A DNA stretch of 19,663 nt, from positions 1-19,663 of IMG/VR virus record IMGVR_UViG_2695420792_000006; one strand, 5' to 3'. This stretch comes from a virus. Lineage: Duplodnaviria; Heunggongvirae; Uroviricota; Caudoviricetes. Shown here piece by piece: positions 4,047 through 19,663 of the stretch. Below the pieces are notes generated by a model that worked only from the letters and a program-made list of their open reading frames with translations, was not told where the DNA came from and ran no database searches. Both the position numbers and the translations under genes were made by a program. Within the stretch, counting starts at the first letter, position 1. The number at the start of each line of letters is the position of its first letter.

Positions 4047-4171
4047 CAGTTAATTCCTCCACTGGTATATTTTTCTTTCGCGTAATCAATAACCTCTTGA
4101 AAAAGGTTGTCTATAATTAACTTTCCGGTTTCAGTCAGGTATTCAGTATGTTGATTAATCCCGATAGCATT

Positions 4172-4805: not shown

Positions 4806-4810
4806 TGTTG

Positions 4811-5482
4811 CTACTCCTTTGCTTCTGATTTTCCCGTTAACAACCACACCAGGTCACAATTAAGCGCACTGGCCAGTGGTACTATCTGATCAGCAGGAAC
4901 TTCACAGATGCCGCATTCCCAGTCGTTTATGGGGTCACTGTAGGTATGAATCATGCGGGCAAGATCAGCTTCAGTTAAGCCCAGTTTTTTACGGGCGCTT
5001 TTGATGCGTGCGCCAATACTTTCCACATGGACTTCAGGCGCATTTACGCGAATAGCTGACTCGCTGTTTTTTTCACTCAGCAGAGAAAGCGGATCGCATC
5101 CCAGGACGTTTGCCAGGGGGATAAGCATGCTGATGGTTGGTTCGTACTCTCCGCTCTCCCATTGCAGAATAATCTCTTCGTCAAGATCGAGTAGTCTGGC
5201 CAGTTCGGTGGTCGTCAAGCCGCAGGCTTCACGTTGGGTACGGATTTTTCCAAAAAAGTGACTATGCGAAACCATAGCTTTTGCCTCACATAGTTTTTCT
5301 GCAAAAATTGATGCAGTTTCTTCTGTTTTTTGCAGGGAACGCATCAGGCATCTGATTGCATTATAAACCCTCTCACTTTCTGCTCCGTTTTCTGACATGT
5401 AGGAATAGATCATTCCAAGCAGCGAGCCGCCTTCTTGTATTTGTGCTGCAATTTCATCCATCACCTTAACTGCATGCTTCAT
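4811..5482 (-). CDS. Tandem HTH (XRE-type) DNA-binding protein with unknown N-terminal domain; first gene of the pL-like operon
   Basis: 223 aa. Two XRE-like helix-turn-helix segments (TTTELARLLDLDEEIILQWESGEYEPT and LTEADLARMIHTYSDPINDWECGICEVPADQI). AGGAGG Shine-Dalgarno 4 nt upstream. A consensus sigma70-like promoter lies immediately upstream. Confidence 0.7.
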   Translation of the reverse strand: MKHAVKVMDEIAAQIQEGGSLLGMIYSYMSENGAESERVYNAIRCLMRSLQKTEETASIFAEKLCEAKAMVSHSHFFGKIRTQREACGLTTTELARLLDLDEEIILQWESGEYEPTISMLIPLANVLGCDPLSLLSEKNSESAIRVNAPEVHVESIGARIKSARKKLGLTEADLARMIHTYSDPINDWECGICEVPADQIVPLASALNCDLVWLLTGKSEAKE

Positions 5483-5507
5483 ATGAGCCTCCTGTTGTTT
5501 TAATTTT

Positions 5508-5536
5508 ACAATAGCTAAAGCGTTTGGTTATGTCAA
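5508..5536 (-). promoter_or_regulatory. pL-like promoter (-35 TTGACA, 17-bp spacer, -10 TATTGT) with overlapping operator-like motif
   Basis: Minus-strand reading gives TTGACA(17 nt)TATTGT upstream of the 223-aa gene. The 13-mer TCAATCGCTATAG (5533-5545) overlaps the -35 and recurs at 6448-6460 beside the cro-like promoter. Confidence 0.5.
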
Positions 5537-5658
5537 TCGCTATAGCTATGCATTTTGAGCAGCAAAGAACAGATTATGAGAGAAATGAGACGATACGTAG
5601 GGAGTTGAGATACAGGAAAGTAGAGCAGCTGCGCAATACAGCTGCCGGTGATGTTGAC

Positions 5659-6363
5659 TTATCCGACCCTGTTATACTGGATTGACTGATGAATGAGAAC
5701 TTTCCCCATTATGAATAGATGTTCTTCAGCTGATTCACTTATAAACCATTCCTTGTAGGCCGGATTGTCTGATATAACAGCAAGTTGCATCCCTTGCATT
5801 TGCAGGCGTTTGATATGGAAGGTGTGCCCAAAAATAAAAACATAGATACCGTCAGTTTCAAAATTTCTGACGGATACGTCGACAAACACCTGATCTCCTG
5901 CACACAGAGTAGGAGCCATGCTGTCGCCATCAACTGTTATCATCTTTATGATATTTGCTGGCCTGCTACAGAACAGACGTCTTGCGGCGTCATGTGAAAA
6001 TTCTATAGCATGGACCGTTTCTGCAAAATCTGAAACAAGGAATGTTCCTGGTCCCGCGCTGGCAGCGATATCCAGGACTTCCACACGAAAAATATCCTTA
6101 TCATTTTCCAGCGGGGAATATGATACCTGTGGTGTCGGATTGCAGGATGTGCTTTCTTCTGGGGTCATAGGACCAACACCGTACGATAGCCACTCGGGGC
6201 GCACGTTCAGGGTATTGGCTATCTCCACAACTTTCCTGGAGCCTGTGGCACCATTAACCAGTTTATTTACGCTCGATTGAGCCATGCCAACCTCTCTGGC
6301 CAGTTTTCCCTGCGAGTATCCGCGGATAGTCATAGCTAACTGTAGCCTGTCTGAAAAGCTCAT
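5659..6363 (-). CDS. cI-like prophage repressor (HTH_XRE + S24 LexA-like peptidase domain)
   Basis: N-terminal HTH (YSQGKLAREVGMAQSSVNKLVNG) and C-terminal S24-like region with the GDSM serine motif and a downstream lysine (VDGDSMAPT ... HIKRL). Start set at the ATG with an AGGAGG Shine-Dalgarno at 6368-6373 rather than the longer track ORF. Divergent from a cro-like gene. Confidence 0.85.
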   Translation of the reverse strand: MSFSDRLQLAMTIRGYSQGKLAREVGMAQSSVNKLVNGATGSRKVVEIANTLNVRPEWLSYGVGPMTPEESTSCNPTPQVSYSPLENDKDIFRVEVLDIAASAGPGTFLVSDFAETVHAIEFSHDAARRLFCSRPANIIKMITVDGDSMAPTLCAGDQVFVDVSVRNFETDGIYVFIFGHTFHIKRLQMQGMQLAVISDNPAYKEWFISESAEEHLFIMGKVLIHQSIQYNRVG

Positions 6364-6387
6364 AAGTCCTCCTTTTTCTGCCCTTTT

Positions 6388-6416
6388 AGTGTATCGCCTT
6401 AGCGATATATACACAA
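6388..6416 (-). promoter_or_regulatory. pRM-like promoter for the repressor (-35 TTGTGT, 17 bp, -10 TACACT) overlapping a palindromic operator
   Basis: Read on the minus strand. The palindrome TATCGCcttaGCGATA (6392-6407) lies in the spacer. Confidence 0.4.
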
Positions 6417-6432
6417 ACCGCTTTTCCGCACA

Positions 6433-6461
6433 TTGTAATCGCTTTGATCAATCGCTATAGT
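6433..6461 (+). promoter_or_regulatory. pR-like promoter for the cro-like gene (-35 TTGTAA, 17 bp, -10 TATAGT) with AATCGCT operator repeats in the spacer
   Basis: TTGTAA at 6433-6438, 17-nt spacer, TATAGT at 6456-6461, about 25 nt upstream of the cro-like ATG. Direct repeats AATCGCT occur at 6437-6443 and 6450-6456. Confidence 0.45.
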
Positions 6462-6486
6462 GAATGGAATCAGGTTGGAGGTCGAT

Positions 6487-6750
6487 ATGAAAAATGAAGG
6501 TATAGCCAAGGCTGTAGATATTGCGGGAAGCCAGATTGCTCTGGCTAGGCGTTGTGGTCGCGCGCAGTCAACAATTTGCGACTGGCTGAATGGGAAGAAA
6601 AAAATTTCTCCTGAATTTGTTCCGTCTCTGGTTAAGGCGGTCGATGGGAAAGTCCAGGCGTATGAATTTCGTCCTGATCTACCGGAGCTTTTCCCACACC
6701 CAAGCTTAGCGCACACAGAAGATGGAGTGTGCGAAGGAGATAAACAGTGA
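6487..6750 (+). CDS. Cro/YdaS-like HTH regulator
   Basis: ATG at 6487 with a GGAGG Shine-Dalgarno at 5-nt spacing. HTH segment (IAGSQIALARRCGRAQSTICDWLNG). Divergent from the cI-like repressor, the classic immunity-region layout. Confidence 0.7.
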   Translation: MKNEGIAKAVDIAGSQIALARRCGRAQSTICDWLNGKKKISPEFVPSLVKAVDGKVQAYEFRPDLPELFPHPSLAHTEDGVCEGDKQ

Positions 6751-7454
6751 ATACAGCAATTTTTACCGACAAAGCATCTATGACCAGCGTTGAGATTGCT
6801 GAGTTGGTTGGTAAGCGCCATGACAATGTAAAACGCACTATTGAAACATTAGCCAAAGGTGGTGTTGTCCGGTCTCCTCAAATTGAGGTTTCCGAAAGAA
6901 TCAATAACTTAGGGTTTAAAGTTCAACACGAGCATTATCTGTTTGAAGGCGAACAAGGCAAACGCGACAGCATTATTGTTGTCGCACAGCTTTGCCCTGA
7001 ATTCACCGCCCGCCTGGTAGACCGCTGGCGTGAACTGGAAGAACAGATCCGTAAGCCAATGAGCGAAATCGAAATGGTTGCCGCGATGGCGCTCGAGGCT
7101 GTTCGCCAACAAAGACGTCTTGAGCATGTGGAAGAGAAAGTCATCCACGTTACCGAAACAGTCGAGCAAATCAAAAGAGGCACCATACGCGATGGTTATG
7201 CAGGCTACCGTCAGCTGGTGGCGAAAACGGGTATGTCAGATGCGAAATGTCGCAATCTGGTGAACGCATATCAGATCCCTACTGACACCCATGAATTTAT
7301 GACGCCGGATGGATTGTTGTCTCGTCGCGCGATTGTTGCAGTAGAACCCTTCATGTCTGCTTTTCATCGCATGATGAGTGAAGCAGAACCACGGGGTACT
7401 CGCTGGTATCACCCGAAGATGGGGCTGTTCCAGGCGCTGGGCTGGCAGGGGTAA
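6747..7454 (+). CDS. Rha-family phage regulatory protein
   Basis: N-terminal Rha-type motif (MTSVEIAELVGKRHDNVKRTIETL). GTG at 6747 has an AAGGAG Shine-Dalgarno at 7-nt spacing and overlaps the cro-like stop. An alternative ATG start lies at 6780. Confidence 0.65.
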   Translation: MNTAIFTDKASMTSVEIAELVGKRHDNVKRTIETLAKGGVVRSPQIEVSERINNLGFKVQHEHYLFEGEQGKRDSIIVVAQLCPEFTARLVDRWRELEEQIRKPMSEIEMVAAMALEAVRQQRRLEHVEEKVIHVTETVEQIKRGTIRDGYAGYRQLVAKTGMSDAKCRNLVNAYQIPTDTHEFMTPDGLLSRRAIVAVEPFMSAFHRMMSEAEPRGTRWYHPKMGLFQALGWQG

Positions 7455-7473
7455 TTATGCTCACAGGTAACAC

Positions 7474-7653
7474 ATGCAAGTACTCAATCGCTGGTTCCGT
7501 GATGGAAGAGGGCGTCGCGTCCACGTTATACGCTGGGAGCCTGAAACACAGCGGGTTATTTACCTGCGTGATGGTTATCCGGATGAGTGCTTCAGCCCAC
7601 TATGGTTGTTTCGTCGTGATTTTGTTGAGTGCGAAGCGCCACCAGCATATTGA
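7474..7653 (+). CDS. Small hypothetical protein (59 aa) in an alternate frame to the track ORF
   Basis: My translation of ATG 7474 gives MQVLNRWFRDGRGRRVHVIRWEPETQRVIYLRDGYPDECFSPLWLFRRDFVECEAPPAY, which looks protein-like. It falls below the track's length cut-off. The overlapping N-terminal 157 aa of the 340-aa track ORF look non-native. Confidence 0.35.
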   Translation: MQVLNRWFRDGRGRRVHVIRWEPETQRVIYLRDGYPDECFSPLWLFRRDFVECEAPPAY

Positions 7654-7927
7654 TTCTGCAATTCCGGGACGTTACACTGCTCAGGCACCTTATAAAGCGG
7701 GTGCCGGGATTGGCGTCCTGAAACTTACAGAAGAGCATAACCGCGCTCATGCGGTTTTTTCATGTCATGAGCATTGCTACGCCCAAATTATGGTGGGGCG
7801 TGCAGGGGCATCGCAAGATGCGCCGGGTTCTTCTGTGACCGGTTACGCCAACCCTGTACGTCTCACCACCTCTGTGATTGGCGTCCCATGTGGTGAGTGT
7901 TTTAAACTCACAGAAGGGGCTGTCATC

Positions 7928-8479
7928 ATGACTACTCTCCCAACCATCGCTCAACCTGAACTTTGCATTGTTGCTGGCAAAGTGGTTACTTCTTCTCTGT
8001 CTGTTGCCTGTTATTTCCGCAAACAACACAAAAATGTCATTCAAAAAATTGCGTCTCTTGAATGCTCTGCCGAATTTACTGAGCTGAATTTTCAGCCCAG
8101 TGAATACACCGACGCATCAGGCCGCAAACTCCCTTGTTACCAAATCACCCGCGACGGTTTTGCATTTCTTGCTATGGGTTTCACGGGTAAACGTGCTGCC
8201 CGGTTCAAAGAAGCATACATCAATGCCTTTAACCAGATGGAGAGGTGCTTATCAGGAGTTGGTGCGGCTGATATGCCATCTGTCGCACAAAACGCCAGAG
8301 GCGTATACCTGCATTTGCGAGAAATCCACCAAATCTGGACAAGCCAGCTTTATCCCATGCTTAAGGCTGTTGAATCTCCGCTGGCTAGCAAACTGTACGA
8401 CCGTGTAGGTGATGCTGTTTTTGGTGCTGCACTTGTTGATTCCAGACTGAACGGTTCTGACAAGGAGGCGCACCCATGA
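7928..8479 (+). CDS. Rha-family phage regulatory protein (second copy)
   Basis: Rha-type core from MTTLPTIAQPELCIVAGKVVTSSLSVACYFRKQHKNVIQKI ... TRDGFAFLAMGFTGKRAARFKEAYINAFNQME. ATG at 7928 preceded by GAAGGGG. The upstream 7457-7927 part of the track ORF is probably not part of this protein. Confidence 0.6.
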   Translation: MTTLPTIAQPELCIVAGKVVTSSLSVACYFRKQHKNVIQKIASLECSAEFTELNFQPSEYTDASGRKLPCYQITRDGFAFLAMGFTGKRAARFKEAYINAFNQMERCLSGVGAADMPSVAQNARGVYLHLREIHQIWTSQLYPMLKAVESPLASKLYDRVGDAVFGAALVDSRLNGSDKEAHP

Positions 8480-8709
8480 TTCGCCGCGTCGTTAGTTCCC
8501 TGTATCACCGATACAACCACTGCCCCCGTGTGGGGCAGTGGTTCACCACCAGCAACGGTCACGTTCTGCGGGTTTGCCTGGTCAATACAGAAAGCCAGAA
8601 GGTTGTCTGCCAGGTTCAGGGATGTACTCATACCCTGAGTTATCCGCTGGTGGCGTTTCAGTCCGGAAAAATGTTTAAACGCCTGGGAGGTGGCTATGCG
8701 TCCGTCTGA
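8476..8709 (+). CDS. Small Cys/His-containing hypothetical protein
   Basis: 77 aa. Perfect AAGGAGG Shine-Dalgarno at 7-nt spacing. ATGA overlap with the preceding Rha gene stop. Confidence 0.45.
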   Translation: MIRRVVSSLYHRYNHCPRVGQWFTTSNGHVLRVCLVNTESQKVVCQVQGCTHTLSYPLVAFQSGKMFKRLGGGYASV

Positions 8710-9589
8710 TCTTCTGCTCGATTTTGGACATCCGGTTGCTTATTACCCTGGGCTCGTTAAATACATGGGAAGTCCGCACGCTGTTATTTTCTTTGGTCAG
8801 ATTTTTTACTGGCAGGATAAAGCACATGCAGCGGAAGGCGTACATAAAACGCGTGAAGAGATACAACACGAAACAGGACTTACATTTGAACAACAGGCTG
8901 TAGCGCGTAAGTATCTTGTGTCCAGAGGCATTTTGGTTGAAACCAACAAGCGTCTTGAGCACAAAATGTTCTACCGTATAGATTGTGAGCGCCTTAATGA
9001 AATTATCAATGAAAACAATCAGTTTTCCCGAAATGGGGAAACCCGTTTTCGGGAAACTGTAAAACCCAATTTCGCGGAGGAGGGAAAGCCTTCACCGCGG
9101 ACACGGGAAACCCCTCGCCGCGGAGAAGGGAAAACCAATTTCGATCTTACAGAGAATACAACAGAGATTACTTCAGAGAATACTACAGAGAGTAAAAACA
9201 CTATTGGCGCATCCGCTGACGCGTCTGCACCAGCACGTTCTGCCCGACAGGAATATTCACCGGAATTTGAACAGGCCTGGCAGGAATATCCCAAACGTGC
9301 TGGTGGTAATTCCAAGTCAGCAGCCTTCAAAGCCTGGAAAGCCCGTATCAGGGAAGGTGTGACACCCGAAACCATGCTCAACGGTGTGAAACGCTATGCC
9401 GCCTGGGTGCGTGTCTCAGGAAATACCGGCACCCAGTTCGTGAAGCAGGCATCGACGTTCTTTGGCCCCGATCGGCACTTTGACGAATCCTGGCAACAGT
9501 CAGCAGCTCCCGGAGGTGGGCGGGGCAAAAGCCTCCCGATCTCGGGATTCAGTGAACAGGACTACGGCTCAACGAACTTCAACTGGTGA
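8696..9589 (+). CDS. Phage replication initiation protein (O-like replisome organiser) carrying internal iteron-like repeats
   Basis: ATG at 8696 with GGAGG 5 nt upstream. Lies directly upstream of the DnaC-like and DnaB-like genes. Contains a repeat-rich internal DNA segment (9023-9190), as the lambda O gene contains ori. Confidence 0.6.
   Translation: MRPSDLLLDFGHPVAYYPGLVKYMGSPHAVIFFGQIFYWQDKAHAAEGVHKTREEIQHETGLTFEQQAVARKYLVSRGILVETNKRLEHKMFYRIDCERLNEIINENNQFSRNGETRFRETVKPNFAEEGKPSPRTRETPRRGEGKTNFDLTENTTEITSENTTESKNTIGASADASAPARSARQEYSPEFEQAWQEYPKRAGGNSKSAAFKAWKARIREGVTPETMLNGVKRYAAWVRVSGNTGTQFVKQASTFFGPDRHFDESWQQSAAPGGGRGKSLPISGFSEQDYGSTNFNW
9023..9190. repeat. Iteron-like repeats (CGGGAAA/GGGAAAnC, about 6 copies) followed by an AT-rich tandem 24-bp repeat; candidate origin of replication
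   Basis: Copies at about 9023-9030 (inverted), 9035-9044, 9050-9057, 9082-9088, 9104-9111 and 9128-9135. Then cagagaatacaacagag / cagagaatactacagag at 9150-9190. Confidence 0.45.
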
Positions 9590-9606
9590 TTTTGTGGGGT
9601 GTGAAA

Positions 9607-10497
9607 ATGATTAATTTCCTGAACAAACAACACATGCAACACGACAAAGCGCAATTACTCAACCGCAGTGCGGAGCTGGAGGAGGAGATGCAGTTTGCCC
9701 GTGCCGGGAAGCGTCCGTGGCGCTGTGAGCACTGGCTGGCAAGCGATGAGACTGCAGAGTGTGAGAAGCACGGAAAATATACTCGTCTGGTGTTGAAAGG
9801 GCCAGATATTCGCGGAGAAACCATCAAACGGGTATCCGGATGTCCGCGCTGCATCGCAGAAGAACTGGATCACGTGCATGACGAATTACGCGCCCTGAAG
9901 GTTCGTGAATTACTCGATCAGGCCGGTATTGCCCGCCGCTTTGAGAACTGCGAGTTTGAGAACTATCAGGCTGTGAATGCCGGGGCTCAGCGGAATCTTG
10001 ATGCCTGCCAGCGTTATGTCGATGCCTGGAAGGATCACCTCGCGGCGGGTACCAGCATGATCATGATTGGCAATTGCGGTACCGGGAAAAATCACCTGGC
10101 TGTATCAATGGCAAAAAATATTATTCGCCACCACCTGGCGACCGTCGAAATTACGGATGTTATGCGACTGACCCGCGCTGTGAAAAATACATGGCGTCAC
10201 AATTCTGAACGCACTGAAGATGAAGTTATTGACCATTTTGTATCACTGGACCTGCTCATCATTGATGAAGTCGGTGTTCAGTTTGGCACGCCTGCCGAGA
10301 TAACCATCCTGCAGGAAATCATCAACGCGCGTTACGAAAGTATTCTGCCAACAATTCTGATCAGCAACCTGACGTTTGACCAGCTTAAGGAGTCCATTGG
10401 TGAGCGAATTGTAGATCGCGTTACTGACGGCGGGCGTAACCGCCTGGTGTTTGGCTGGGAGAGCTACCGGGCAAATATCGGAGGTGTTGCCGCATGA
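9607..10497 (+). CDS. DnaC-like helicase loader (AAA+ ATPase, IstB/DnaC family) with N-terminal Cys4 zinc-binding region
   Basis: Walker A motif GNCGTGKNHLAVS, Walker B motif LLIIDEVG, and an N-terminal four-Cys cluster (CEHW...CEKHG...CPRC). Start may be the GTG at 9586 (track) or the ATG at 9607. Confidence 0.8.
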   Translation: MINFLNKQHMQHDKAQLLNRSAELEEEMQFARAGKRPWRCEHWLASDETAECEKHGKYTRLVLKGPDIRGETIKRVSGCPRCIAEELDHVHDELRALKVRELLDQAGIARRFENCEFENYQAVNAGAQRNLDACQRYVDAWKDHLAAGTSMIMIGNCGTGKNHLAVSMAKNIIRHHLATVEITDVMRLTRAVKNTWRHNSERTEDEVIDHFVSLDLLIIDEVGVQFGTPAEITILQEIINARYESILPTILISNLTFDQLKESIGERIVDRVTDGGRNRLVFGWESYRANIGGVAA

Positions 10498-11894
10498 CCA
10501 GCCAGAACAACCCGGCATGGCGTAACGATGACCTGGAAGGTGCGGTGATTGGCGCGTTTTTTCTGCGTGGGGCTGATCCGGAAGTGATGGATATTCTGGC
10601 CACGCTTCCGGCGGATGTATTTTTCGTGCGTCAGTACCGGGATATTTACGCGGGGATTTGCAGACAGGCCCGCGTATCCGGCGTCATTGACCCCGTGCTG
10701 CTGTGCAATGAGATGCCGGAACTTGCCCCGGTGATTACCGACACCGGGCGCAAAACCTGGGTGAAGTCTTCACTGGAGCACTATGTTGCAGCGCTGCGAC
10801 GCAATGCCGCACTGCGCGATGCAGAAAAAACACTGACTGAAGCATTACAGAATTTACGTGATGCACATACCTGCGAAGCGGCAGAAGATGCCCTGAAGGA
10901 TGCGCAGAACATGATGGCCTCACTGTCGACCGGAAAGGGCGTCATTCAGCCGGTTCACATTGATGATGTCCTTCCGGAAGTGGTGGGCCGTGTTGAATGC
11001 CGGAATCAGGGACTGGAGAAATCCAGGGCGCTGATGACCGGTATTGATGAACTGGACGCAAAAACGGGCGGTATGGAGCCCGGAGACCTGGTATTCATTG
11101 CCGCCCGTCCTTCGATGGGGAAAACAGAACTTGCGCTGGACATCATCGACAAGGTGACTGAGCAGGGGCATGGCGTGCTTCTGTTCACCATGGAGATGGC
11201 GAACATCCAGATTGGTGAACGTATGGTGTCTGCAGCAGGGGGAATGCCGGTATCCCGTCTTAAGTCTGTTGCCCGTTTTGAAGATGAAGACTGGGCGCGT
11301 TTCTCACAGGGCGTGGGACGAATGACGGGGCGTAATATCTGGATGGTGGACCAGGCAAATCTGACCATTGATGAGATATGTGCAACCACGAGGTACCACC
11401 GGATGAAGCATCCGGAAACGGCGCTGGTGGTGGTCGATTACCTCGGCCTGATTAAAACCCGCAGCACGGGGCGTCACGACCTTGCGGTGGGGGAAATCTC
11501 AAAGGGACTTAAAAGCCTGGCAAAATCCGGCGGTTTTCCGCTGATTGCTCTGAGCCAGCTCTCCCGCGGCGTGGAATCCAGACCCAATAAACGTCCCATG
11601 AACTCAGACCTGAAAAACTCCGGGGAAATCGAGGCTGATGCCGACATCATTCTGATGCTTTACAGGGATGAGGTGTATAACCCGGATACACAGGCGAGAG
11701 GCATAGCAGAAATCAACATCACGAAACAGCGTAATGGCACGCTCGGGACCATTTACCGGCGTTTTCATAACGGACATTTTCTGCCTGTGGACCAGGAGAG
11801 TGCCCGGGTTCTTTCCACACCCATGACGCCGGGCAATCCGCGCAGATACAGCAATAACCGCATGTCGGGCAGTAAAGCGGAGCGTTTATTTTGA
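10494..11894 (+). CDS. DnaB-family replicative DNA helicase
   Basis: DnaB-type motifs GIDELDAKTGGMEPGDLVFIAARPSMGKTELALDI (Walker A), VVVDYLGLI, and LSQLSR(G)VE. ATGA overlap with the loader gene. Confidence 0.85.
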   Translation: MTSQNNPAWRNDDLEGAVIGAFFLRGADPEVMDILATLPADVFFVRQYRDIYAGICRQARVSGVIDPVLLCNEMPELAPVITDTGRKTWVKSSLEHYVAALRRNAALRDAEKTLTEALQNLRDAHTCEAAEDALKDAQNMMASLSTGKGVIQPVHIDDVLPEVVGRVECRNQGLEKSRALMTGIDELDAKTGGMEPGDLVFIAARPSMGKTELALDIIDKVTEQGHGVLLFTMEMANIQIGERMVSAAGGMPVSRLKSVARFEDEDWARFSQGVGRMTGRNIWMVDQANLTIDEICATTRYHRMKHPETALVVVDYLGLIKTRSTGRHDLAVGEISKGLKSLAKSGGFPLIALSQLSRGVESRPNKRPMNSDLKNSGEIEADADIILMLYRDEVYNPDTQARGIAEINITKQRNGTLGTIYRRFHNGHFLPVDQESARVLSTPMTPGNPRRYSNNRMSGSKAERLF

Positions 11895-12148
11895 ATAACA
11901 GAACAGCCACTGTTTCACCGGAACAACTTCGTCGCCAGGCGCAGGAGATGCTTCGTTGTGCTGAACAGATGGAAAAAATGAGCGTGGCAAAGGATACGCT
12001 CCGCAAGCAGCTTACTCCGGCGCTTCGTGATCTGCTGCAGGCAAAACACCGCACACAAAAGGCGGTGGATGAGCTGGTGGATTGCGTGGCGGAACTGGAA
12101 GGCAAGGTAAGCCAGTTTGAAACTCTGGTGAAGGAGTTTACTGCGTGA
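11891..12148 (+). CDS. Small coiled-coil hypothetical protein (start uncertain, track start is TTG)
   Basis: 85-aa ORF overlapping the helicase stop. Charged, helical-looking sequence. No family recognised. Confidence 0.35.
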   Translation: MNNRTATVSPEQLRRQAQEMLRCAEQMEKMSVAKDTLRKQLTPALRDLLQAKHRTQKAVDELVDCVAELEGKVSQFETLVKEFTA

Positions 12149-12193
12149 TGGCTGAATTTTTTCTCCTGTGTTCATGCAATATCGTTCGCTGAG

Positions 12194-13189
12194 GTGACCG
12201 TGAGAGCATTGTTGACTCCTGAAATTGCCCCGCGAATGGGGATTGTATTGTTCAGACCCGGTTCAGAGCTGATGCCCCTGTTTATGCAGGGGCGTGTCCT
12301 GCTGGAGCCTGAGCCGGAACGTTATTCATCTTTCGCCAGTGGTGCCGTTCCGGCGGCATCACAACCGCTGGCGGATGATCCTGCCGTTCGGGCCGTGTTC
12401 CGCAATGAGGCAGTGATCCGTCGTGCTGGTGGCGTGGAATGTCTTGAAAGCTGGTTACTTCGTGAAAAAGGCTGCCAGTGGCTTCATTCCGACTGGCACA
12501 GCGAGAACATGACCACAATGCGACACGCGCCGGGCGCAATCCGTCTGTGCTGGCACTGCGATAACCAGCTGCGCGATCAGTTCACGGAACGGCTGGAATC
12601 AATGGCAACGGATAACTGTGCCCGCTGGGTGTTGTCTGTTGTGCGTCGGGATCTCGGTTTTGATGACAGTCACGTTGTGACAATGCCGGAACTGTGCTGG
12701 TGGCTGGTTCGTAATAATCTGGCGGATGCCTTACCGGAAAGCGCAGCCCGTAAGGCACTGAGATTACCGAATCCTGTTGTGCCGTCTGTCACCCGGGAAA
12801 GTGACCTTGTGCCTTCGGTTCCTGCCACCAGCATCATCCAGGATAAGGCGAAAAAGGTGCTGGCGCTGAAAGTGGATCCGGAGTCGCCGGAGTCTTTTAT
12901 GTTACGCCCAAAACGTCGCCGCTGGGTTAATGAAAAGTACACGCGCTGGGTTAAGACACAGCCGTGCGCATGTTGTGGAAAGCCTGCTGATGATCCCCAC
13001 CACCTGATAGGCCACGGTCAGGGGGGAATGGGTACAAAAGCGCATGACCTCTTTGTGTTGCCTTTGTGCAGAAAGCATCACGACGAGCTGCATGCGGATA
13101 CCGTGGCATTTGAAGAGAAGTATGGCTCCCAGCTGGAGCTGATATTTCGTTTTATCGATCGCGCGCTGGCAACTGGCGTGCTGGCCTGA
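12194..13189 (+). CDS. DUF968-like phage protein with C-terminal HNH-like zinc-finger motif
   Basis: C-terminus CACCGKPADDPHHLIGHGQGGMGTKAHDLFVLPLCRKHHDELH matches an HNH-type CxxC...HH...CxxxHH pattern. Lies immediately upstream of Q, as ydfU-like genes do in E. coli cryptic prophages (recollection). Track start is GTG; the true start is unresolved. Confidence 0.55.
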   Translation: MTVRALLTPEIAPRMGIVLFRPGSELMPLFMQGRVLLEPEPERYSSFASGAVPAASQPLADDPAVRAVFRNEAVIRRAGGVECLESWLLREKGCQWLHSDWHSENMTTMRHAPGAIRLCWHCDNQLRDQFTERLESMATDNCARWVLSVVRRDLGFDDSHVVTMPELCWWLVRNNLADALPESAARKALRLPNPVVPSVTRESDLVPSVPATSIIQDKAKKVLALKVDPESPESFMLRPKRRRWVNEKYTRWVKTQPCACCGKPADDPHHLIGHGQGGMGTKAHDLFVLPLCRKHHDELHADTVAFEEKYGSQLELIFRFIDRALATGVLA

Positions 13190-13206
13190 TTTTGTGGATA
13201 AAGTTT

Positions 13207-13572
13207 ATGCGTGATATTCAGATGGTTCTGGATCGTTGGGGTGCATGGGCGGCGAGTGATAGTTCTGGGGTAGACTATTCGCCTATAGCTGCTGGGTTTA
13301 AAGGGCTTCTTCCCTATACAAGCAAAACACGTCAGGCTTGTTCAGATAGTGATGCATTAATTATTGAAGGTTGTCTTGCTCGTCTAAAGCAAAAAAGACC
13401 TGAAGAACACTCGCTTCTTGTTGCCCATTACCTATACGGTATCTCTAAAAGAAAGCTCGCCAAAGCTCGTAAAAAGGATGAGAAACTAATACGCATTGAG
13501 ATACAGATGGCTGAGGGTTTTGTTGAAGGCTGTCTCTCAATGCTTGATCTTTGTCTGGAAATGGACCAATAG
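13207..13572 (+). CDS. Late-gene antiterminator Q (QuuD/phage 21-type Q family)
   Basis: MRDIQMVLDRWGAWAA...GFKGLLP...EGCLARLK...LEMD closely resembles the roughly 125-aa Q antiterminators of E. coli lambdoid prophages as I recall them. ATG at 13207 preferred over the TTG track start. Confidence 0.8.
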   Translation: MRDIQMVLDRWGAWAASDSSGVDYSPIAAGFKGLLPYTSKTRQACSDSDALIIEGCLARLKQKRPEEHSLLVAHYLYGISKRKLAKARKKDEKLIRIEIQMAEGFVEGCLSMLDLCLEMDQ

Positions 13573-13583
13573 ACTACCAGAAT

Positions 13584-13620
13584 AGAAACTGCCGCTCAGC
13601 TTTGCGGATCGGCAGTTTCT
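13584..13620. repeat. Perfect 11-bp inverted repeat (AGAAACTGCCG / CGGCAGTTTCT, 15-nt loop) between convergent genes
   Basis: Lies between the Q stop and the stop of the minus-strand 140-aa gene, whose 3' end it overlaps. No U-tract on either side. Confidence 0.5.
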
Positions 13621-14018
13621 GATGGTGTAATGTTACGCGCAGATGTTTCGAGTATAGATTCCCTTCCGATTGATACCAAAATTTCGATTGTTCTTGCTTT
13701 AGCCTGCATCAATGTTGATTTTATTTCAGGACTTAAGTGGTCAGATCGTAACTGCTTCTCAATCTCAGCCAAATCACGCTTGCATTTTGCTCTTTTGGCT
13801 GCGTCCTCTGGAGATTCGAAACCATGCCTCGAAATAAACCAATTCATGACGTAAGTTAAAGTTGCCGCAACACCCGGTACCAATGCGTAGGCTACAGTTC
13901 GCCACACGCTATTAGGGTCGGTTAAAATCGCGCTAACAAGAACACTTAGAATTGCTCCCCAGCCACCAGTTGAAAGGGTAGCTTTTCCTGTACTTAGACC
14001 TTTAGTTTGAGAATTCAT
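13596..14018 (-). CDS. Cassette gene 3: 2-TM membrane protein with cytoplasmic coiled-coil tail
   Basis: 140 aa. Hydrophobic helices WGAILSVLVSAIL and VAYALVPGVAATLTYVMNWFI, followed by a charged C-terminal region. Start overlaps the stop of the upstream gene. Confidence 0.6.
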   Translation of the reverse strand: MNSQTKGLSTGKATLSTGGWGAILSVLVSAILTDPNSVWRTVAYALVPGVAATLTYVMNWFISRHGFESPEDAAKRAKCKRDLAEIEKQLRSDHLSPEIKSTLMQAKARTIEILVSIGRESILETSARNITPSETADPQS

Positions 14019-14284
14019 TTTCGTTTTGAATTCTCCGCAATTGCCTCTTCAATGAGGGTTGTTAGCATTTTTCCCTTTTTACTTGGAACTTTTATTACTA
14101 GCGTCTTAGTCACTCCGGATTCTTCATCGTGATATCGGAATTCGAAGACTTTTGTAGGGAATAGTCGACGCCAAAGCAAGGCTGACGCTGAATAGCAAAA
14201 ACGACTAAAGGCAGGGATGATCATTATCACCCCAATCCAGAAGATCAGTTGTGCTATCTGCATGTTCAGTGTCACTTTTGTCAA
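14015..14284 (-). CDS. Cassette gene 2: small membrane protein (1-2 TM)
   Basis: 89 aa. Hydrophobic N-terminus (IAQLIFWIGVIMIIPAF) and a Lys-rich soluble tail. 4-nt overlaps with both neighbouring genes. Confidence 0.55.
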   Translation of the reverse strand: MTKVTLNMQIAQLIFWIGVIMIIPAFSRFCYSASALLWRRLFPTKVFEFRYHDEESGVTKTLVIKVPSKKGKMLTTLIEEAIAENSKRK

Positions 14285-15150
14285 GCCTCAGCAGGGCGTT
14301 TTCGTTTTACTTTGGTTATAGCATACTTGGTTGTGGCATTTCGCGCAGTGAAAGTTTTTATAGTTTTTAGCTCAACAACAAACAAATCTTCTTTTGTAAA
14401 ACTGATGATTCCATTTTGAACTTGGTGTATAAACAACTGATCTTCAAATGTAACAGCATGCTCCTCGCCTAAATAATCGATTCTCCAACCCTTTGTACCC
14501 TCGAAGTTGATCTGTACGAATCTAACATTGACTTCTTCTACAGACTCTTCTTTTTCAAGTAGTGTACCTCTAGGCAGCGGTTTGATCTCTTCAGTTTCAC
14601 TTCCTTCAAGACGAACGACTTCTTCGCCTTCATCATTTAGCACCTTAAATACTGCACCTTGTTTGCCGTCTAATGGTGCACGAACTACATTCACAAGGGC
14701 ATCACGGACTTCAGGATCTGTTACTAACTTAGCCACTGAGTCATGGCAAACAATTTCTTCCCCTTCAAGTTCAAGAACAGATTCTTCTGTTCCTGCCCGT
14801 TTTGTTACCGAAATTACTTTCTTGCTGCCCAGTTGGCGGATTAGTGATAATGCTGGAGCTCCAATAGCAGCCCCGGCTATCCCTGTTAGGCCAATCACTT
14901 TTGCGACGTCGACGGCATGAGGAACAAGCTCCATCATCGTATAGGATACGCCGAGTGATCCCGCTTCTGCTGGATTAGTAACCATTAACTTAACGGTTTG
15001 TTGACCGTCATTAAGTCTTTTATCAGCTGCTGATATTAAATCTGCCATCGAACCTATGGAGATGCTTAATGTTTTGGCATCAATTTTATGCTGTGCTAAT
15101 TCGTTATCCTCTGCATCGTAGAAGATCTGAAAAGAAGTTGTTTTAGTCAC
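14281..15150 (-). CDS. Cassette gene 1: 289-aa hypothetical protein with a central hydrophobic/Gly-Ala segment and acidic stretches
   Basis: No family recognised. Central hydrophobic segment VAKVIGLTGIAGAAIGAPALSLI and acidic runs (LELEGEEIV, EGSETEE). Track start is GTG with a weak Shine-Dalgarno, so the start is uncertain. Locally AT-rich. Confidence 0.55.
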   Translation of the reverse strand: MTKTTSFQIFYDAEDNELAQHKIDAKTLSISIGSMADLISAADKRLNDGQQTVKLMVTNPAEAGSLGVSYTMMELVPHAVDVAKVIGLTGIAGAAIGAPALSLIRQLGSKKVISVTKRAGTEESVLELEGEEIVCHDSVAKLVTDPEVRDALVNVVRAPLDGKQGAVFKVLNDEGEEVVRLEGSETEEIKPLPRGTLLEKEESVEEVNVRFVQINFEGTKGWRIDYLGEEHAVTFEDQLFIHQVQNGIISFTKEDLFVVELKTIKTFTARNATTKYAITKVKRKRPAEA

Positions 15151-15394
15151 TCTTTGCTCGCTATGTCTTGACTTTTTTCCATAAAATACCTTTTTTGGGT
15201 ATAAAAAACATTATCGCGGTCCGCAAAAATTGCGTTACTGTGTTAAGAGTGGTTACTTCGCCACACAGCTTAAACCCGCCGTCGAGCGGTTTTTTTGTAC
15301 CTGTAAACCTGGTGCAGTACAGTAAACACGCTGGTGGCGGTGAATACCTGTCTTTCAGCTTGCTGGCTTTTTCGACAAGAGTTATTGGTATGTC

Positions 15395-15622
15395 ATGTCA
15401 ACCAGAAGGGAAAAAGACATGCTAAAACAGCAAGATATGACAGAAACCGCCGCCGCAGTCCTTCATTTCTTACCTGCTGACAAGTGGGTAACGCCACGCA
15501 TGATGACGAGAACTACAGGAGTAAGCGAAGCCCGGTGCCAGTTAATACTGACTCAGTTAGTTCTGGCGGGTCTGGCGAAGGATAACGGCGGGTACGGGAA
15601 TAAATTCAGACGCTGCCAGTAA
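15395..15622 (+). CDS. Small hypothetical protein, possibly winged-helix DNA-binding (alternative start ATG 15419)
   Basis: 75-aa ORF upstream of the methyltransferase. The internal ATG at 15419 has an AGAAGGGA Shine-Dalgarno. Helix-rich segment VSEARCQLILTQLVLAGLAKDNGG. Confidence 0.4.
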   Translation: MSTRREKDMLKQQDMTETAAAVLHFLPADKWVTPRMMTRTTGVSEARCQLILTQLVLAGLAKDNGGYGNKFRRCQ

Positions 15623-15772
15623 TGGCGGTTTCCTGCTGTGAAAATGGGCGGCTGGTGGGTGTTGGTAGCACCTGCCAGCCATTCGCTCATGCTTACTGGT
15701 CACAAGCGAACCATGGCCCACTGCTTTAGCGCAAAAGCAGAGTGAGCCTACCAGAGTTACGCTTACTGATCC

Positions 15773-16830
15773 ATGAAAAATACTGTAAAAATAAACAGTG
15801 TTGATTTAATCAACGCTGATTGCCTGCATTTTATTCAGTCCCTGCCTGATGATTCCATTGACCTGATTGTTACCGATCCGCCGTACTTCAAGGTGAAACC
15901 CAACGGCTGGGACAATCAGTGGAAAGGGGACGAAGATTACCTTAAGTGGCTGGACCACTGTCTTGCGCAGTTCTGGCGGGTGCTGAAACCTGCAGGAAGT
16001 CTATACCTGTTCTGTGGGCATCGCCTGGCATCTGACACCGAAATCATGATGCGTGAGCGGTTTAACGTGCTGAACCATATCATCTGGGCAAAGCCGTCCG
16101 GACGCTGGAACGGGTGTAACAAGGAAAGCCTGCGGGCGCATTTTCCGGCCACAGAGCGCATTCTGTTCGCGGAACATTATCAGGGGCCGTATCGCCCGAA
16201 AGATGATGGCTGTGAGGCGAAGGGCAGGGCACTGAAACAGCATGTGATGGCCCCGCTGATTGCTTACTTTCGTGATGCGCGCGCTGCCCTGGGGATAACG
16301 GCAAAACAGATTGCAGATGCCACAGGAAAGAAAAACATGGTGTCGCACTGGTTCAGTGCCAGTCAGTGGCAGCTGCCGAACGAAAGCGATTATCTGAAAT
16401 TACAGGCCCTGTTTGCCCGGGTGGCAGAAGAGAAGCATCAGCGCGGTGAACTGGAATGGCCCCACCACCAGCTGGTGGATACGTATACGTCACTGAACCG
16501 GCAGTATGTGGAGCTGCAGAGTGAATATAAGCATCTGCGGCGGTATTTTGGTGTGACGGCGCAGGTGCCGTACACGGATGTGTGGACATATAAACCGGTG
16601 CAGTTCTATCCCGGGAAACATCCGTGCGAAAAACCGGCAGAAATGCTGCAGCAGATAATCAGCGCAAGCAGTCGTCCGGGTGACCTGGTTGCAGATTTTT
16701 TATGGGCTCAGGTTCAATGGTAAAAGCGGCACTGGCGCTCGGGCGTCGTGCGATTGGCGTTGAACTGGAGGCCGGACGTTTTGAGCAGACAGTCAGGGAA
16801 GTTCAGGATTTCATCGTTCGAAACGGATGA
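15773..16830 (+). pseudogene. DNA methyltransferase (N6-adenine/N4-cytosine class, DPPY motif) interrupted by a -1 frameshift in a T6 run
   Basis: Motif IV DPPY (IVTDPPYF). The reading frame stops at 16723 (ADFLWAQVQW*). Adding one T to the run at 16696-16701 would read ADFFMGSGSMVKAALALGRRAIGVELEAGRFEQTVREVQDFIVRNG*, restoring the FxGxG SAM-binding motif and ending at 16830. Confidence 0.65.
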
Positions 16831-16870
16831 GATTGCAGAATTAATTACGGACCGTTATTATCCGGCTCCC

Positions 16871-16946
16871 GGCCCTTTAGCTCAGTGGTGAGAGCGAGCG
16901 ACTCATAATCGCCAGGTCGCTGGTTCAAATCCAGCAAGGGCCACCA
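16871..16946 (+). tRNA. tRNA with CAT anticodon, Ile2 (lysidine)-type (ileZ-like); elongator Met not excluded
   Basis: Manual cloverleaf: acceptor GGCCCTT/AAGGGCC, D-arm GCTC-AGTGGTGA-GAGC, anticodon loop CTCATAA, T-loop TTCAAAT, 3' CCA encoded. Resembles E. coli ileX-type sequence as recalled. Confidence 0.8.
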
Positions 16947-17046
16947 TCACAAACCGCCATTAGCTTATCAGGAAGAGCAGACGACACCATAACAGGGTTG
17001 TTGGTGCGGGGGCGGGTCCCCGATGGCGGTCCATTATCGGTATTCT

Positions 17047-17123
17047 GCGTTGTTAGCTCAGCCGGACAGAGCAATTGCCTTCTAAGCAATCGGTCAGTGG
17101 TTCGACTCCACTACAACGCGCCA
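17047..17123 (+). tRNA. tRNA-Arg (anticodon TCT, reads AGA)
   Basis: Manual cloverleaf: acceptor GCGTTGT/ACAACGC, anticodon stem ATTGC/GCAAT, loop CTTCTAA, T-loop TTCGACT, CCA encoded. Confidence 0.8.
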
Positions 17124-17136
17124 CACTTATTTTCCA

Positions 17137-17160
17137 GGCTCGCTTCGGCGGGCCTTTTTT
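17137..17160 (+). terminator. Rho-independent terminator after the tRNA pair
   Basis: GGCTCGC-TTCG-GCGGGCC stem-loop (one G-U wobble) followed by TTTTTT. Confidence 0.6.
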
Positions 17161-17292
17161 GTATCTGCGCCACGCCCGGCGCATATCAACCACAGAGCCT
17201 TTCGGGGGTGAGCTTACGGAGTGGTCAGTGTGACTTTCTCTGTGGGCAGATCGCTCCCGGGCGTTGGCTCACCCACCCAAAGGAACGTCACG

Positions 17293-17724
17293 ATGTTTGG
17301 AATCTTCAAAAAGAAAACCCGCAGAGCGGCAGCGGAAATTAAAAAGTTTGAGAAACGCGATCTGGCACAGGCGGTGATTAACGCTGCATACCTGGTGGCC
17401 TATGCAGATGGTGAATGCGAGGCATCCGAGAAAGCGAAGATCGAACAGGTCTTACGTAATCAGCCTGCGTTGTCTGCGTTTACCTCGGAAATTAATGCGA
17501 TTAGCGCAACCATTATCGGTCAGCTGGATACGAACTTTAAAATTGGTCGTCGTGCGGCGTTACGTGAGATCGAGGATGTGAAACACGATACGCGTGAAGC
17601 GGAAGATGTGCTGGATGTGGCGGTGGCCATTGCGGAGGCAGACGGCGAAATTGAGCCGGAAGAGCGCAAGGTGCTGGAAGAGATTGCCGGTGTTCTGGGG
17701 CTTCGTCTGGAGAATCACCTGTGA
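17293..17724 (+). CDS. TerB-like (tellurite-resistance TerB family) protein
   Basis: 143 aa. ATG at 17293 with an AAGGA Shine-Dalgarno. Sequence AVINAAYLVAYADGECEASEKAKIEQVL ... DVAVAIAEADGEIEPEERKVLEEIAGVLGL matches the TerB helical repeat pattern as I recall it. Confidence 0.6.
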   Translation: MFGIFKKKTRRAAAEIKKFEKRDLAQAVINAAYLVAYADGECEASEKAKIEQVLRNQPALSAFTSEINAISATIIGQLDTNFKIGRRAALREIEDVKHDTREAEDVLDVAVAIAEADGEIEPEERKVLEEIAGVLGLRLENHL

Positions 17725-17852
17725 CGGTAAAACTGCGCCTGGCTGTGGCTGCACTCCTGCTGTTTCTGGTGGTGATGGTGGATTTCACCAGCAGAATCAT
17801 GTCGGTGCTGGCGGATGGGGGGCTGGTCTGCGGCATTGTGGTATTGCTGTAG
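17721..17852 (+). CDS. Putative small hydrophobic peptide (43 aa, GTG start) coupled to the TerB-like gene
   Basis: GTG overlaps the TerB stop (GTGA). GGAGAA Shine-Dalgarno 6 nt upstream. Translation VTVKLRLAVAALLLFLVVMVDFTSRIMSVLADGGLVCGIVVLL has two hydrophobic segments. Not in the supplied track (short, non-ATG start). Confidence 0.3.
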   Translation: MTVKLRLAVAALLLFLVVMVDFTSRIMSVLADGGLVCGIVVLL

Positions 17853-18202
17853 CCGGTGATAAAAAGAAACAGCCTGCATAATGCTTGATTTTTTTGTTTG
17901 CTGTTTATTAAAAACACTTCTGCATGGTGAATCCCCCTGTGCGGTGGGGCAATCAGCAAGAAGGAATATGGGGTAATCGCGGATTCAGGTGCTGATACTG
18001 AATTCACCGGGAGGCACCCGGCACCATGCTTTGCCACAAAATTGTTGTTTCTGTTTTTCTCAAATTATCATCATTATCCCTTTATTTCCGGCTGCGCATG
18101 GCGTGGCCTTTTTTTTACGACCAGCCACTGGCAGATGACCATCCTGTGATTTGATTCCGCTTCCGGCTTTTTAACTCTGTTCCTGTACACGGGAGAAATT
18201 CG

Positions 18203-18583
18203 ATGTCGATTAAACATTATGATGTTGTCAGGGCGGCGTCGCCGTCAGACCTTGCGGAAAAGCTGACACAAAAACTGAAGGAGGGGTGGCAGCCATTTGG
18301 CAGCCCGGTGGCCATCACGCCTTATACTCTGATGCAGGCCATTGCGGCGGAAGGTGATGTCACCACACCTGTGTTGGTGAAGCCGTCGGATGGAGAAGGC
18401 ACAGTAATCAGCGCCAGCCGGGTGTTCTCATCGGTGATAGATATGCCGGCAGGGCGGGGTCATGTCACCCTGACGTTTAATGTGTCGTCGGCCGGTGCGA
18501 ACAACTGGACGCCGACAACGTACATCAGTGATTTACTGGTTGTGGTCATGAAAAAATCCACGGCAGGGATCAGTATCAGCTGA
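18203..18583 (+). CDS. Hypothetical phage protein (N-terminus resembles small phage-associated DUF-type domains)
   Basis: 126-aa ORF with upstream GGGAGAAAT ribosome-binding region. N-terminus [33 protein letters not shown]. Followed by a strong terminator. Confidence 0.5.
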
Positions 18584-18602
18584 CGGTTTATTAACCCGGA
18601 CG

Positions 18603-18626
18603 GGCACCTCAGGAGGTGCCTTTTTT
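18603..18626 (+). terminator. Rho-independent terminator
   Basis: GGCACCTC/GAGGTGCC stem-loop followed by TTTTTT. Confidence 0.65.
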
Positions 18627-18651
18627 ATTGACTGAAAACAAAGAGGTAATC

Positions 18652-19275
18652 ATGCGGCATTTATACGCAACGATATTATTGTTTACTACCCTGCTGGCAG
18701 GAATTGCCTTTCCTGCACAGGCTGAAAGCGGACACGGTGCATTTTCCGTGGGATATGCTCAGGTTCACCCGGGCGGCGTACCGGCATTGTCCGGTACCGG
18801 TGCGCGTGCAGGTGATTTAAAAGGGATTAATGTGAAATACCGTTATGAGTTCACGGATCACCTGGGCGGCATTGTCGCGCTGAGTTATGCATCGGTGAAG
18901 AAAAGTGACACGATGAAGACGGGTGAAAATACCTTCCATTATGAAAGCCTGCGCGGTCGTTATGTCAGTCTGATGGCCGGCCCTGTCTGGCAGCTCAGTG
19001 AGCGGGTCAGTCTCTATGGCATGGCCGGGATGGCGTACACCCGCTGGTCTGACAGTGTTCAGGATTACCGGCGTGATGAAGTGAAACCGGGGTATGTGAA
19101 GGAGACCACCACCGCCAGTGATGGCCATACTGCGCGTCATCTGTCGCCGGCCTGGAATGCCGGGATTCAGTTCAGTCCCGTAGAGACGGTGGTTATTGAC
19201 CTTGCTTATGAAGGTTCCGCCAGTGGCGACTGGCGCACTGACGGCTTCATCGTGGGTATCGGCTATAAATTCTGA
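18652..19275 (+). CDS. lom: Lom/Ail/PagC/OmpX-family outer-membrane beta-barrel protein
   Basis: Signal peptide (MRHLYATILLFTTLLAGIAFPAQA). Alternating beta-strand pattern. C-terminal aromatic end (IGYKF). Position immediately upstream of stf as in lambda. ATG at 18652 preferred over the GTG inside the terminator hairpin. Confidence 0.85.
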   Translation: MRHLYATILLFTTLLAGIAFPAQAESGHGAFSVGYAQVHPGGVPALSGTGARAGDLKGINVKYRYEFTDHLGGIVALSYASVKKSDTMKTGENTFHYESLRGRYVSLMAGPVWQLSERVSLYGMAGMAYTRWSDSVQDYRRDEVKPGYVKETTTASDGHTARHLSPAWNAGIQFSPVETVVIDLAYEGSASGDWRTDGFIVGIGYKF

Positions 19276-19301
19276 TTAGCCAGGTAACACAGTGTTATGA
19301 C

Positions 19302-19329
19302 AGCCCGCCGGTTCAGGCGGGCTTTTTTG
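19302..19329 (+). terminator. Rho-independent terminator
   Basis: Perfect 8-bp stem AGCCCGCC/GGCGGGCT with 6-nt loop, followed by TTTTTT. Confidence 0.65.
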
Positions 19330-19339
19330 TGGGGTGAAT

Positions 19340-19663
19340 ATGGCAGTAAAGATTTCAGGTGTACTGAAAGACGGCACAGGAAAACCGGTAGAGAACTGTA
19401 CCATTCAACTGAAAGCCAGACGGACCAGCAGCACGGTGGTGGTGAACACGGTGGCCTCTGAAAATCCGGATGAAGCCGGTCGTTACAGCATGGACGTTGA
19501 GTACGGTCAGTACAGCGTCATTCTGTTGGTGGAAGGATTCCCGCCGTCACATGCCGGGACCATCACCGTGTATGAAGATTCTCAACCGGGGACGCTGAAT
19601 GATTTTCTCGGTGCCATGTCGGAGGATGACGTCCGGCCGGAGGCACTGCGCCGTTTTGAACTG
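19340..19663 (+). CDS. stf: Side tail fibre protein Stf, N-terminal part (continues beyond the window)
   Basis: MAVKISGVLKDGTGKPVENCTIQLKA...VASENPDEAGRYSMDVEYGQYSVIL...FPPSHAGTITVYEDSQPGTLNDFL closely matches the lambda Stf N-terminus as recalled. Confidence 0.8.
   Translation, partial: MAVKISGVLKDGTGKPVENCTIQLKARRTSSTVVVNTVASENPDEAGRYSMDVEYGQYSVILLVEGFPPSHAGTITVYEDSQPGTLNDFLGAMSEDDVRPEALRRFEL

Follow-up and report, generated by a model that had tools for sequence, protein, structure and literature searches.

The DNA methyltransferase gene at positions 15773 to 16830 of the window (the whole stretch of 19,663 nucleotides analysed, IMG/VR record IMGVR_UViG_2695420792_000006) is very probably a fixed loss-of-function pseudogene. 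It derives from an orphan N6-adenine methyltransferase (MTase) of the M.EcoGI/M.EcoGII family, encoded by a lambdoid prophage, in which a run of seven T residues (T7) has lost one T (T6). The frameshift is already known and present in public annotation, as both T6 records that we inspected bear the RefSeq/PGAP label 'DNA-methyltransferase, frameshifted' with a pseudogene flag.

The lesion and its two reading frames

The features of the broken gene are as follows.

15773 to 16723, plus strand: N-terminal methyltransferase pseudogene frame, 316 aa (ORF list; Pfam PF01555 positions 1-188 of 221)
16696 to 16701, plus strand: T6 run, site of the 1-nt deletion (counts of T7, T6 and T8 with identical flanks)
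16696 to 16702, plus strand: in-frame heptamer T_TTT_TTA (U_UUU_UUA), candidate -1 slippery site (codon phase)
16702 to 16830, plus strand: C-terminal remnant, 42 aa, in the -1 frame relative to the upstream ORF (ORF list)

Read directly from the sequence, the T6 run has an A on either side, in the context ...GCAGA TTTTTT ATGGGCTC... Catalytic motif IV (TDPPYF) lies at aa 34-39 of the 316-aa ORF, which also includes the target-recognition region (TRD) in its centre. This ORF terminates in ...GDLVADFLWAQVQW*, with the TAA stop at 16721-16723 following seven out-of-frame codons. The downstream ORF opens with MGSGSMVKAALALGRRAIGVELE and encodes motif I, (F)MGSGS, and the end of the Rossmann fold. 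The two frames are thus present as the initial annotation had described them, one with DPPY ending at 16723 and the other with FMGSGS. Its description of a gene split at the T run also stands, with the correction that a 1-nt deletion shortened T7 to T6 and that the downstream frame is -1 and not +1.

The initial annotation had also predicted that an extra T would restore an enzyme of about 352 aa. Inserting one T in silico indeed yielded a 352-aa protein with ...GDLVADFFMGSGSMVKAA... across the junction (in a longer stretch, ...DLVADFFMGSGSMVKAA...). This repaired protein matches profile positions 1-219 of 221 of Pfam PF01555 (N6_N4_Mtase) with an E value of 3.7e-42 and 145.2 bits, for a gathering score of 26.7 bits. 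FMGSG occupies aa 310-314, and the motif order IV (DPPY), TRD, I (FxGxG) is that of the beta class. The native 316-aa ORF scores 101.2 bits and covers only positions 1-188 of 221, and therefore the SAM-binding end is lost. The gene is a PF01555 member by descent, and its native product is truncated. As the 1-nt deletion removes motif I, the reading frame is not intact, and the locus is a pseudogene member of the M.EcoGI/M.EcoGII family without functional membership.

Split methyltransferases exist in other families, and we considered whether the 316-aa piece and a separately translated 42-aa piece might reassemble into an active enzyme. The downstream piece starts with an ATG (16702), and the 42-aa ORF is called in some Logan contigs. 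However, the 15 nt that precede this ATG (TGGTTGCAGATTTTTT) contain no Shine-Dalgarno-like sequence, and there is no arrangement for coupling, as the ATG is internal to the upstream ORF and not placed after its stop. Furthermore, the cut falls within motif I itself, between DFF and MGSGS, and none of the 161 relatives surveyed (see below) has this architecture. A two-subunit enzyme with no ribosome-binding site and a cut inside motif I was rejected as extremely improbable.

The T6 allele and its T7 relatives

Homopolymer indels are a common artefact on some platforms, and an error of sequencing or assembly in an intact T7 gene had been one of the explanations offered initially. We searched 20,395 records (5,426 complete genomes) with a 34-nt probe made of the T6 run and 14 nt on each side. 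It matched eight records exactly, and these are precisely the eight that are ≥99.9% identical to the window over the whole 1058-nt gene. The carriers were sequenced in different laboratories and come from Japan, the USA and elsewhere, from human, cattle, 'mammal' and chicken meat. Seven further assemblies (one draft genome, one ENA metagenome assembly and five Logan run assemblies) contain the same 1058-nt allele with 0 mismatches, and public assemblies also encode exactly the same 316-aa product. Thus, T6 recurs in 15 independent assemblies that differ in laboratory, year, host and pipeline and that include short-read Logan assemblies as well as finished genomes. It also co-segregates perfectly with allele-specific SNPs, which is not expected of a random error; the lone SNP seen within the T6 lineage is at 16235. 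The recurrence of T6 and this co-segregation show that it is not a sequencing error. The probability that the true tract is T7 is practically negligible, and the identical allele in eight complete genomes and seven other assemblies effectively refutes that explanation.

We then compared the site with that of 161 relatives, namely 80 IMG/VR contigs, 80 species-representative genomes and one further locus, which span Escherichia to Proteus, Xenorhabdus and Gilliamella. In this sample, ranked by tblastn score and hence favouring intact copies, 161 of 161 continue in frame through the site, with DFFMGSG or a near variant of it. This rules out a natural short form of the enzyme ending near 16723, which would have argued against a frameshift, and it makes the break an anomaly of the T6 allele. 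The ancestral reading is GAT TTT TTT ATG (D-F-F-M), with T7. T7 is also commonest among the IMG/VR E. coli prophage copies, and the commonest E. coli form, CTGGTTGCAGA-T7-ATGGGCTCAGGTTCA, corresponds to the flanks of the window plus one T. Outside the main E. coli group, synonymous TTC codons break the run in most alleles, giving GATTTCTTC, GATTTCTTT or GATTTTTTC. Tract lengths were counted in the complete-genome set with probes of 34-36 nt, and the counts cover only alleles with the same 14-nt flanks:

T6, same flanks: 8 exact records
T7, same flanks: 647 exact records
T8, same flanks: 0 exact records

The comparison of the tract among related prophages, which the initial annotation had suggested, thus identifies T7 as ancestral and T6 as belonging to one lineage.

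These counts also bear on the on/off switching of methylation that had been envisaged, in which slipped-strand mispairing would toggle prophage methylation as in the Mod phasevarions. The lesion does lie in a homopolymer, the frame is regained by a single-base change, and phase-variable methyltransferases are a known phenomenon (PMC4417156). However, tract length does not vary among close isolates, as T6 is found in all 15 copies of the allele (8/8 complete genomes and 7/7 other assemblies). No scattered T6 or T8 variants surround the 647 T7 records, in which the tract is stable; T8 was never seen, and T6 is confined to one lineage. Typical contingency tracts are longer than the 6-7 nt present here. 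The tract is not conserved family-wide either, many alleles being interrupted by synonymous TTC codons. The Mod systems of Neisseria, Haemophilus and Helicobacter resemble the window gene in that the length of a simple repeat sets the methyltransferase frame, but their repeat tracts are long and hypervariable, with differences from one sister isolate to another, and these systems regulate genes of the host. In contrast, the window gene has a T6 or T7 tract, invariant in its lineage and in the 647 T7 records, and it is a silent late phage gene. As genes of this family are silent in the lysogen (PMC5778455), switching would have no lysogen phenotype. A single T7-to-T6 event on one background, against some 650 stable T7 records, points to one inherited mutation and not to a contingency tract, and we regard phase variation as very unlikely.

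Conserved residues are also altered in the T6 lineage by private substitutions, which further weakens the switching hypothesis. At conserved positions, the repaired protein has residues that the 161 relatives show never or hardly ever: where it has His123, the relatives have Tyr (149) or Phe (11), thus 160/160; where it has Cys147, 144 have Tyr; and where it has Met316, 158 of 161 have Thr. T316M alters the Thr residue that ends motif I, from GSGST to GSGSM; the corresponding stretch in solved beta-class MTases is DPFMGSGTT according to the PDB alignment. Probes placed over the H123 and M316 codons matched exactly in the same eight T6 genomes alone, with hundreds of records one base off, and a collection of 15 billion proteins contains no exact copy of the repaired protein. 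These substitutions fit relaxed selection. Decay after inactivation is nevertheless not strictly proven, since no intact sister allele is known and the substitutions may predate the frameshift.

The deletion might also have strongly attenuated the gene without abolishing its function. Loss of the T created the heptamer U_UUU_UUA at 16696-16702, in phase with the upstream ORF (GA-T_TTT_TTA-TGG) and fitting the X_XXZ_ZZN pattern, so that a -1 slip of the ribosome there would restore the MTase frame. Such slippage by a minor share of the ribosomes, or stuttering of RNA polymerase, could produce some full-length enzyme with DFFMGSGS or DFLMGSGS at the junction. U_UU.U counts as one of the tetramers most prone to shifting in E. 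coli, and most heptamers with no stimulator raise frameshifting 2-10 times above background (PMC4066793). Folding prediction places a hairpin at 16703-16774 (-35.2 kcal/mol, z -2.38), whose 9-bp core stem begins 8 nt past the heptamer. Moreover, expression of M.EcoGII is deleterious (PMC5778455), which provides a rationale for attenuation. Nevertheless, background -1 frameshifting in E. coli is about 0.04-0.06%, a heptamer alone reaches a few tenths of a percent, and the efficient E. coli motifs are restricted to H_HH.U_UU.Y, a class to which U_UU.U_UU.A does not belong (PMC4066793). The hairpin is coding sequence common to the intact T7 alleles, its z-score is modest, and T316M in motif I and Y123H would both persist in the read-through product. 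In addition, although a zero-frame slippery heptamer is present at the junction, the two-frame arrangement expected of programmed -1 frameshifting is not conserved: it occurs in 0 of 161 relatives and is confined to one near-clonal allele. We thus consider a leaky allele very unlikely. That the leak would be biologically meaningful, with trace non-specific adenine methylation on induction and avoidance of toxicity, is somewhat less likely still.

The methyltransferase family and its prophage setting

M.EcoGI and M.EcoGII are encoded by prophages of E. coli O104:H4 C227-11 (Murray et al. 2018, PMC5778455). Their family consists of beta-class enzymes (DPPY, TRD, FxGxG) that are silent in the lysogen and deleterious under constitutive expression, and M.EcoGII methylates adenine regardless of sequence context (PMC5778455). 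The repaired protein shares 322 of 349 residues (~92%) with a 349-aa MTase of an O104:H4 prophage, WP_000935536.1, from the 2011 outbreak-type genome FDAARGOS_349. The latter protein is most probably M.EcoGI, as it is identical to the printed M.EcoGII sequence at 330 of 349 positions, which matches the published identity of 333/349 between the two enzymes (PMC5778455). The repaired protein is identical to M.EcoGII at no fewer than 312 of 349 positions (≥89%). Identities to M.EcoGII are lower bounds, because its sequence was taken from the supplement of PMC11551740 and contains OCR errors. By sequence, the window gene belongs to the M.EcoGI/M.EcoGII family. Neither this identity nor the existing PGAP annotation as a frameshifted pseudogene figured in the initial annotation.

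The window gene and M.EcoGI/M.EcoGII share the motif order, a length of ~350 aa, ~89-92% amino-acid identity after repair, and a lambdoid prophage location between Q and phage tRNAs with no cognate endonuclease. The window copy differs by the T7-run deletion inside motif I, which leaves a 316-aa product devoid of the SAM-binding motif, and by Y123H and T316M at conserved positions. After repair, its C-terminus is three residues longer (...FIVRNG), as in a 352-aa subgroup.

Of the deposited phages, the closest to the window gene is 1720a-02, which had been named as carrying a very similar MTase (PMC5778455). The methylases of this and other lambdoid phages (Stx2a and Stx2c phages, mEp460, cdtI phage) are 82-90% identical to the window gene at the nucleotide level over the whole gene. 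Most are annotated as DNA methylase or methyltransferase, and the Stx2c-phage record and one Stx2a-phage record have no feature annotated at the matching stretch. These phages share with the window prophage a late-region order with tRNA genes and a NanS-p esterase downstream of the methylase; the window prophage has TerB and DUF3927 at the position of stx in the Stx phages.

Among solved structures, M.RsrI (1eg2/1nw5), M.MboIIA (1g60), CcrM (6pbd) and 8urk/9c3u match at both ends (E values 5e-24 to 1e-13), around DPPY and hP-x-KP...DPFxGSGTT. These are site-specific enzymes, and among the PDB matches the central aa 120-280 (~160 residues) have no solved counterpart by sequence. A literature search on frameshifted M.EcoGII homologues returned nothing relevant.

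The window covers the left-hand portion of a lambdoid prophage that is inserted next to yecE (DUF72) and yecN in E. coli. From the left, its genes code for the integrase, xis, early genes, the repressor region, Rha, replication proteins (DnaB-type helicase), DUF968 and Q. A two-gene reverse-strand cassette, a 67-aa ORF and the methyltransferase follow Q. Next come tRNA(CAT), tRNA-Arg(TCT), TerB, DUF3927 and the start of a NanS-p-type esterase. The features that delimit the MTase position are these.

13192 to 13572, plus strand: antiterminator Q, marking the start of the late operon (Pfam PF06530, E 1.9e-52; PGAP)
16871 to 16946, plus strand: phage tRNA with anticodon CAT, directly downstream of the MTase (ARAGORN, PGAP)
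17047 to 17123, plus strand: phage tRNA-Arg (TCT)

The tRNA(CAT) is called Met by ARAGORN and tRNA-Ile (Ile2, lysidine-dependent) by PGAP, and a terminator-like hairpin at 17136-17155 follows tRNA-Arg. A tRNA(CAT) directly downstream of the MTase is also found in Stx-type lambdoid phages. The order in FDAARGOS_349 is DUF968, RusA, Q, a small ORF, the MTase, tRNA-Ile and two tRNA-Arg genes, with a SASA esterase further on. A scan for promoters and terminators yielded sites no more numerous than in shuffled sequence, and hence the late-operon placement derives from gene order only.

The initial annotation had noted no restriction endonuclease partner. Pfam and PADLOC scans of the neighbouring ORFs matched no endonuclease family, the neighbours identified being only Q, DUF968, TerB, a PDC-S42-like protein, Lom and a J-fusion. 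The 'orphan' label is therefore correct, and it describes the normal state of the M.EcoGI/M.EcoGII family. The DUF968 protein, with its weak HNHc_6 match, was discarded as a cognate endonuclease, as it is the standard gene before Q in every related prophage inspected.

Apart from two SNPs, positions 1-18416 of the window show 100% identity with strains 22-245 and 22-250, and positions 5773-19663 are identical to the draft GCA_001284685.2 (contig CYEH01000019.1). Beyond 18416, the window diverges from the complete prophage: ORF 18203-18583 fuses the start of the esterase (DUF1737) with the C-terminal domain of the J tail protein, and Lom comes after it. Lysis, head and tail genes are absent, and the prophage of the window's strain is thus a remnant. 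In strain 22-245, the same frameshifted allele resides within an otherwise complete-looking prophage. Six STEC-type genomes share 1580-18339 of the window at 99.2% and have another integrase/xis module at this yecE site. T6 is therefore carried in no fewer than three prophage contexts (the window's deleted remnant, the prophage of 22-245/22-250, which looks complete, and the six STEC-type genomes), which indicates that the mutation is older than these rearrangements. The remaining initial proposal, that a real mutation inactivated the gene in a decaying prophage, is supported, with the reservation that decay holds for the window's strain and not for every carrier.

Consequences of the deletion

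In intact phages, gene order places the MTase gene in the Q-dependent late transcript, just upstream of the phage tRNAs. The intact enzyme is presumed to methylate phage DNA broadly in lytic growth and thereby to let this DNA escape host restriction (PMC5778455), and the gene would be kept silent in the lysogen because its expression is harmful to the cell. In the T6 allele, the frame is left after Phe-309 and a stop is met seven codons on. The product lacks the FxGxG loop and the following strand and helix, and it would thus be unable to bind S-adenosylmethionine. We infer that it is inactive, since motif I is missing from it. The deletion probably arose once and was then inherited with the module at the early/late junction of the prophage. 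Loss of the enzyme may have been tolerated because the prophage is maintained vertically, that of the window's strain being presumably unable to form particles.

In practice, annotation should present the locus, in line with RefSeq, as a frameshifted pseudogene derived from a prophage methyltransferase of the M.EcoGI/GII type. It also provides a worked example in which a population census alone separates a homopolymer frameshift from sequencing error and from phase variation. Enzymes of the M.EcoGII family attract practical interest as reagents, and the T6 allele contributes only a naturally inactivated variant with Y123H and T316M. For methylome studies of carrier strains, no activity is to be expected from the T6 copy.

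Right-end joint of an implied deletion and further pseudogenes

Two features were found next to each other at the right end of the window:

18203-18583, esterase-J fusion ORF, with its DUF1737 N-terminus from the NanS-p/SASA esterase and its C-terminal receptor-binding domain from tail protein J
18616-19275, Lom, next after the fusion ORF

Sequence comparison with the full-length prophage of strain 22-245 placed the breakpoint at 18416/18417, as the two sequences part ways exactly at 18417. Together with the fusion ORF, this divergence implies that about 25-30 kb with the lysis, head and tail genes has been deleted, which makes the window's prophage a defective remnant.

PGAP annotated two additional pseudogenes in strain 22-245 (record L001), both in this prophage's early region:

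1631-1735 (L001 2859-2963), truncated DUF4222 pseudogene
4046-4405 (L001 5274-5633), hypothetical pseudogene with an internal stop

Thus, decay in the prophage is not limited to the methyltransferase gene.

Late region from Q to the stx position

A minus-strand cassette (13596-15150) is placed between the gene for antiterminator Q and that of the methyltransferase:

13596-14018, minus strand, 140-aa ORF with no family assigned
14281-15150, minus strand, 289-aa ORF with a match (E 8.8e-33) to PDC-S42, a candidate defence family in PADLOC

The 289-aa ORF is named 'LAPAL motif-containing putative phage structural protein' by PGAP, and an 86-aa ORF between the two is also listed by gene callers. 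The cassette is not present in the related prophages L003 and L164.

The tRNA gene with a CAT anticodon (16871-16946) was assigned to Met by ARAGORN, but the identical gene is tRNA-Ile in the PGAP annotation. It is an ileZ-like gene typical of Stx-type phages, of the Ile2 type, whose product is read as Ile once lysidine-modified. The spacer that separates it from the tRNA-Arg(TCT) gene, at 16954-17040, is a degenerate third tRNA, with an altered T-arm region in the window; neither ARAGORN nor Rfam called a tRNA there. Its equivalent is annotated by PGAP as 'tRNA-OTHER' in strain 2015C-3163, and O104:H4 has an intact tRNA-Arg at this position.

In Stx-converting phages, stxAB is found downstream of the phage tRNAs, whereas the window's prophage harbours at that position a DUF3927 gene and the following gene:

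17293-17724, TerB-family gene (Pfam PF05099, E 2.9e-16)

In some relatives of the backbone, e.g. UC4224, stx1a is present.

Integrase/excisionase module

The six STEC-type carriers represented by record L172 share with the window the early region and the frameshifted methyltransferase gene, inserted at the same yecE/yecN locus, but their integrase/excisionase module differs (1-1579 in the window versus 3390-4995 in L172), with no match between the two modules by megablast. Given this combination of a shared locus, early region and methyltransferase gene with unlike modules, the integrase/excisionase module was swapped within one attachment locus.
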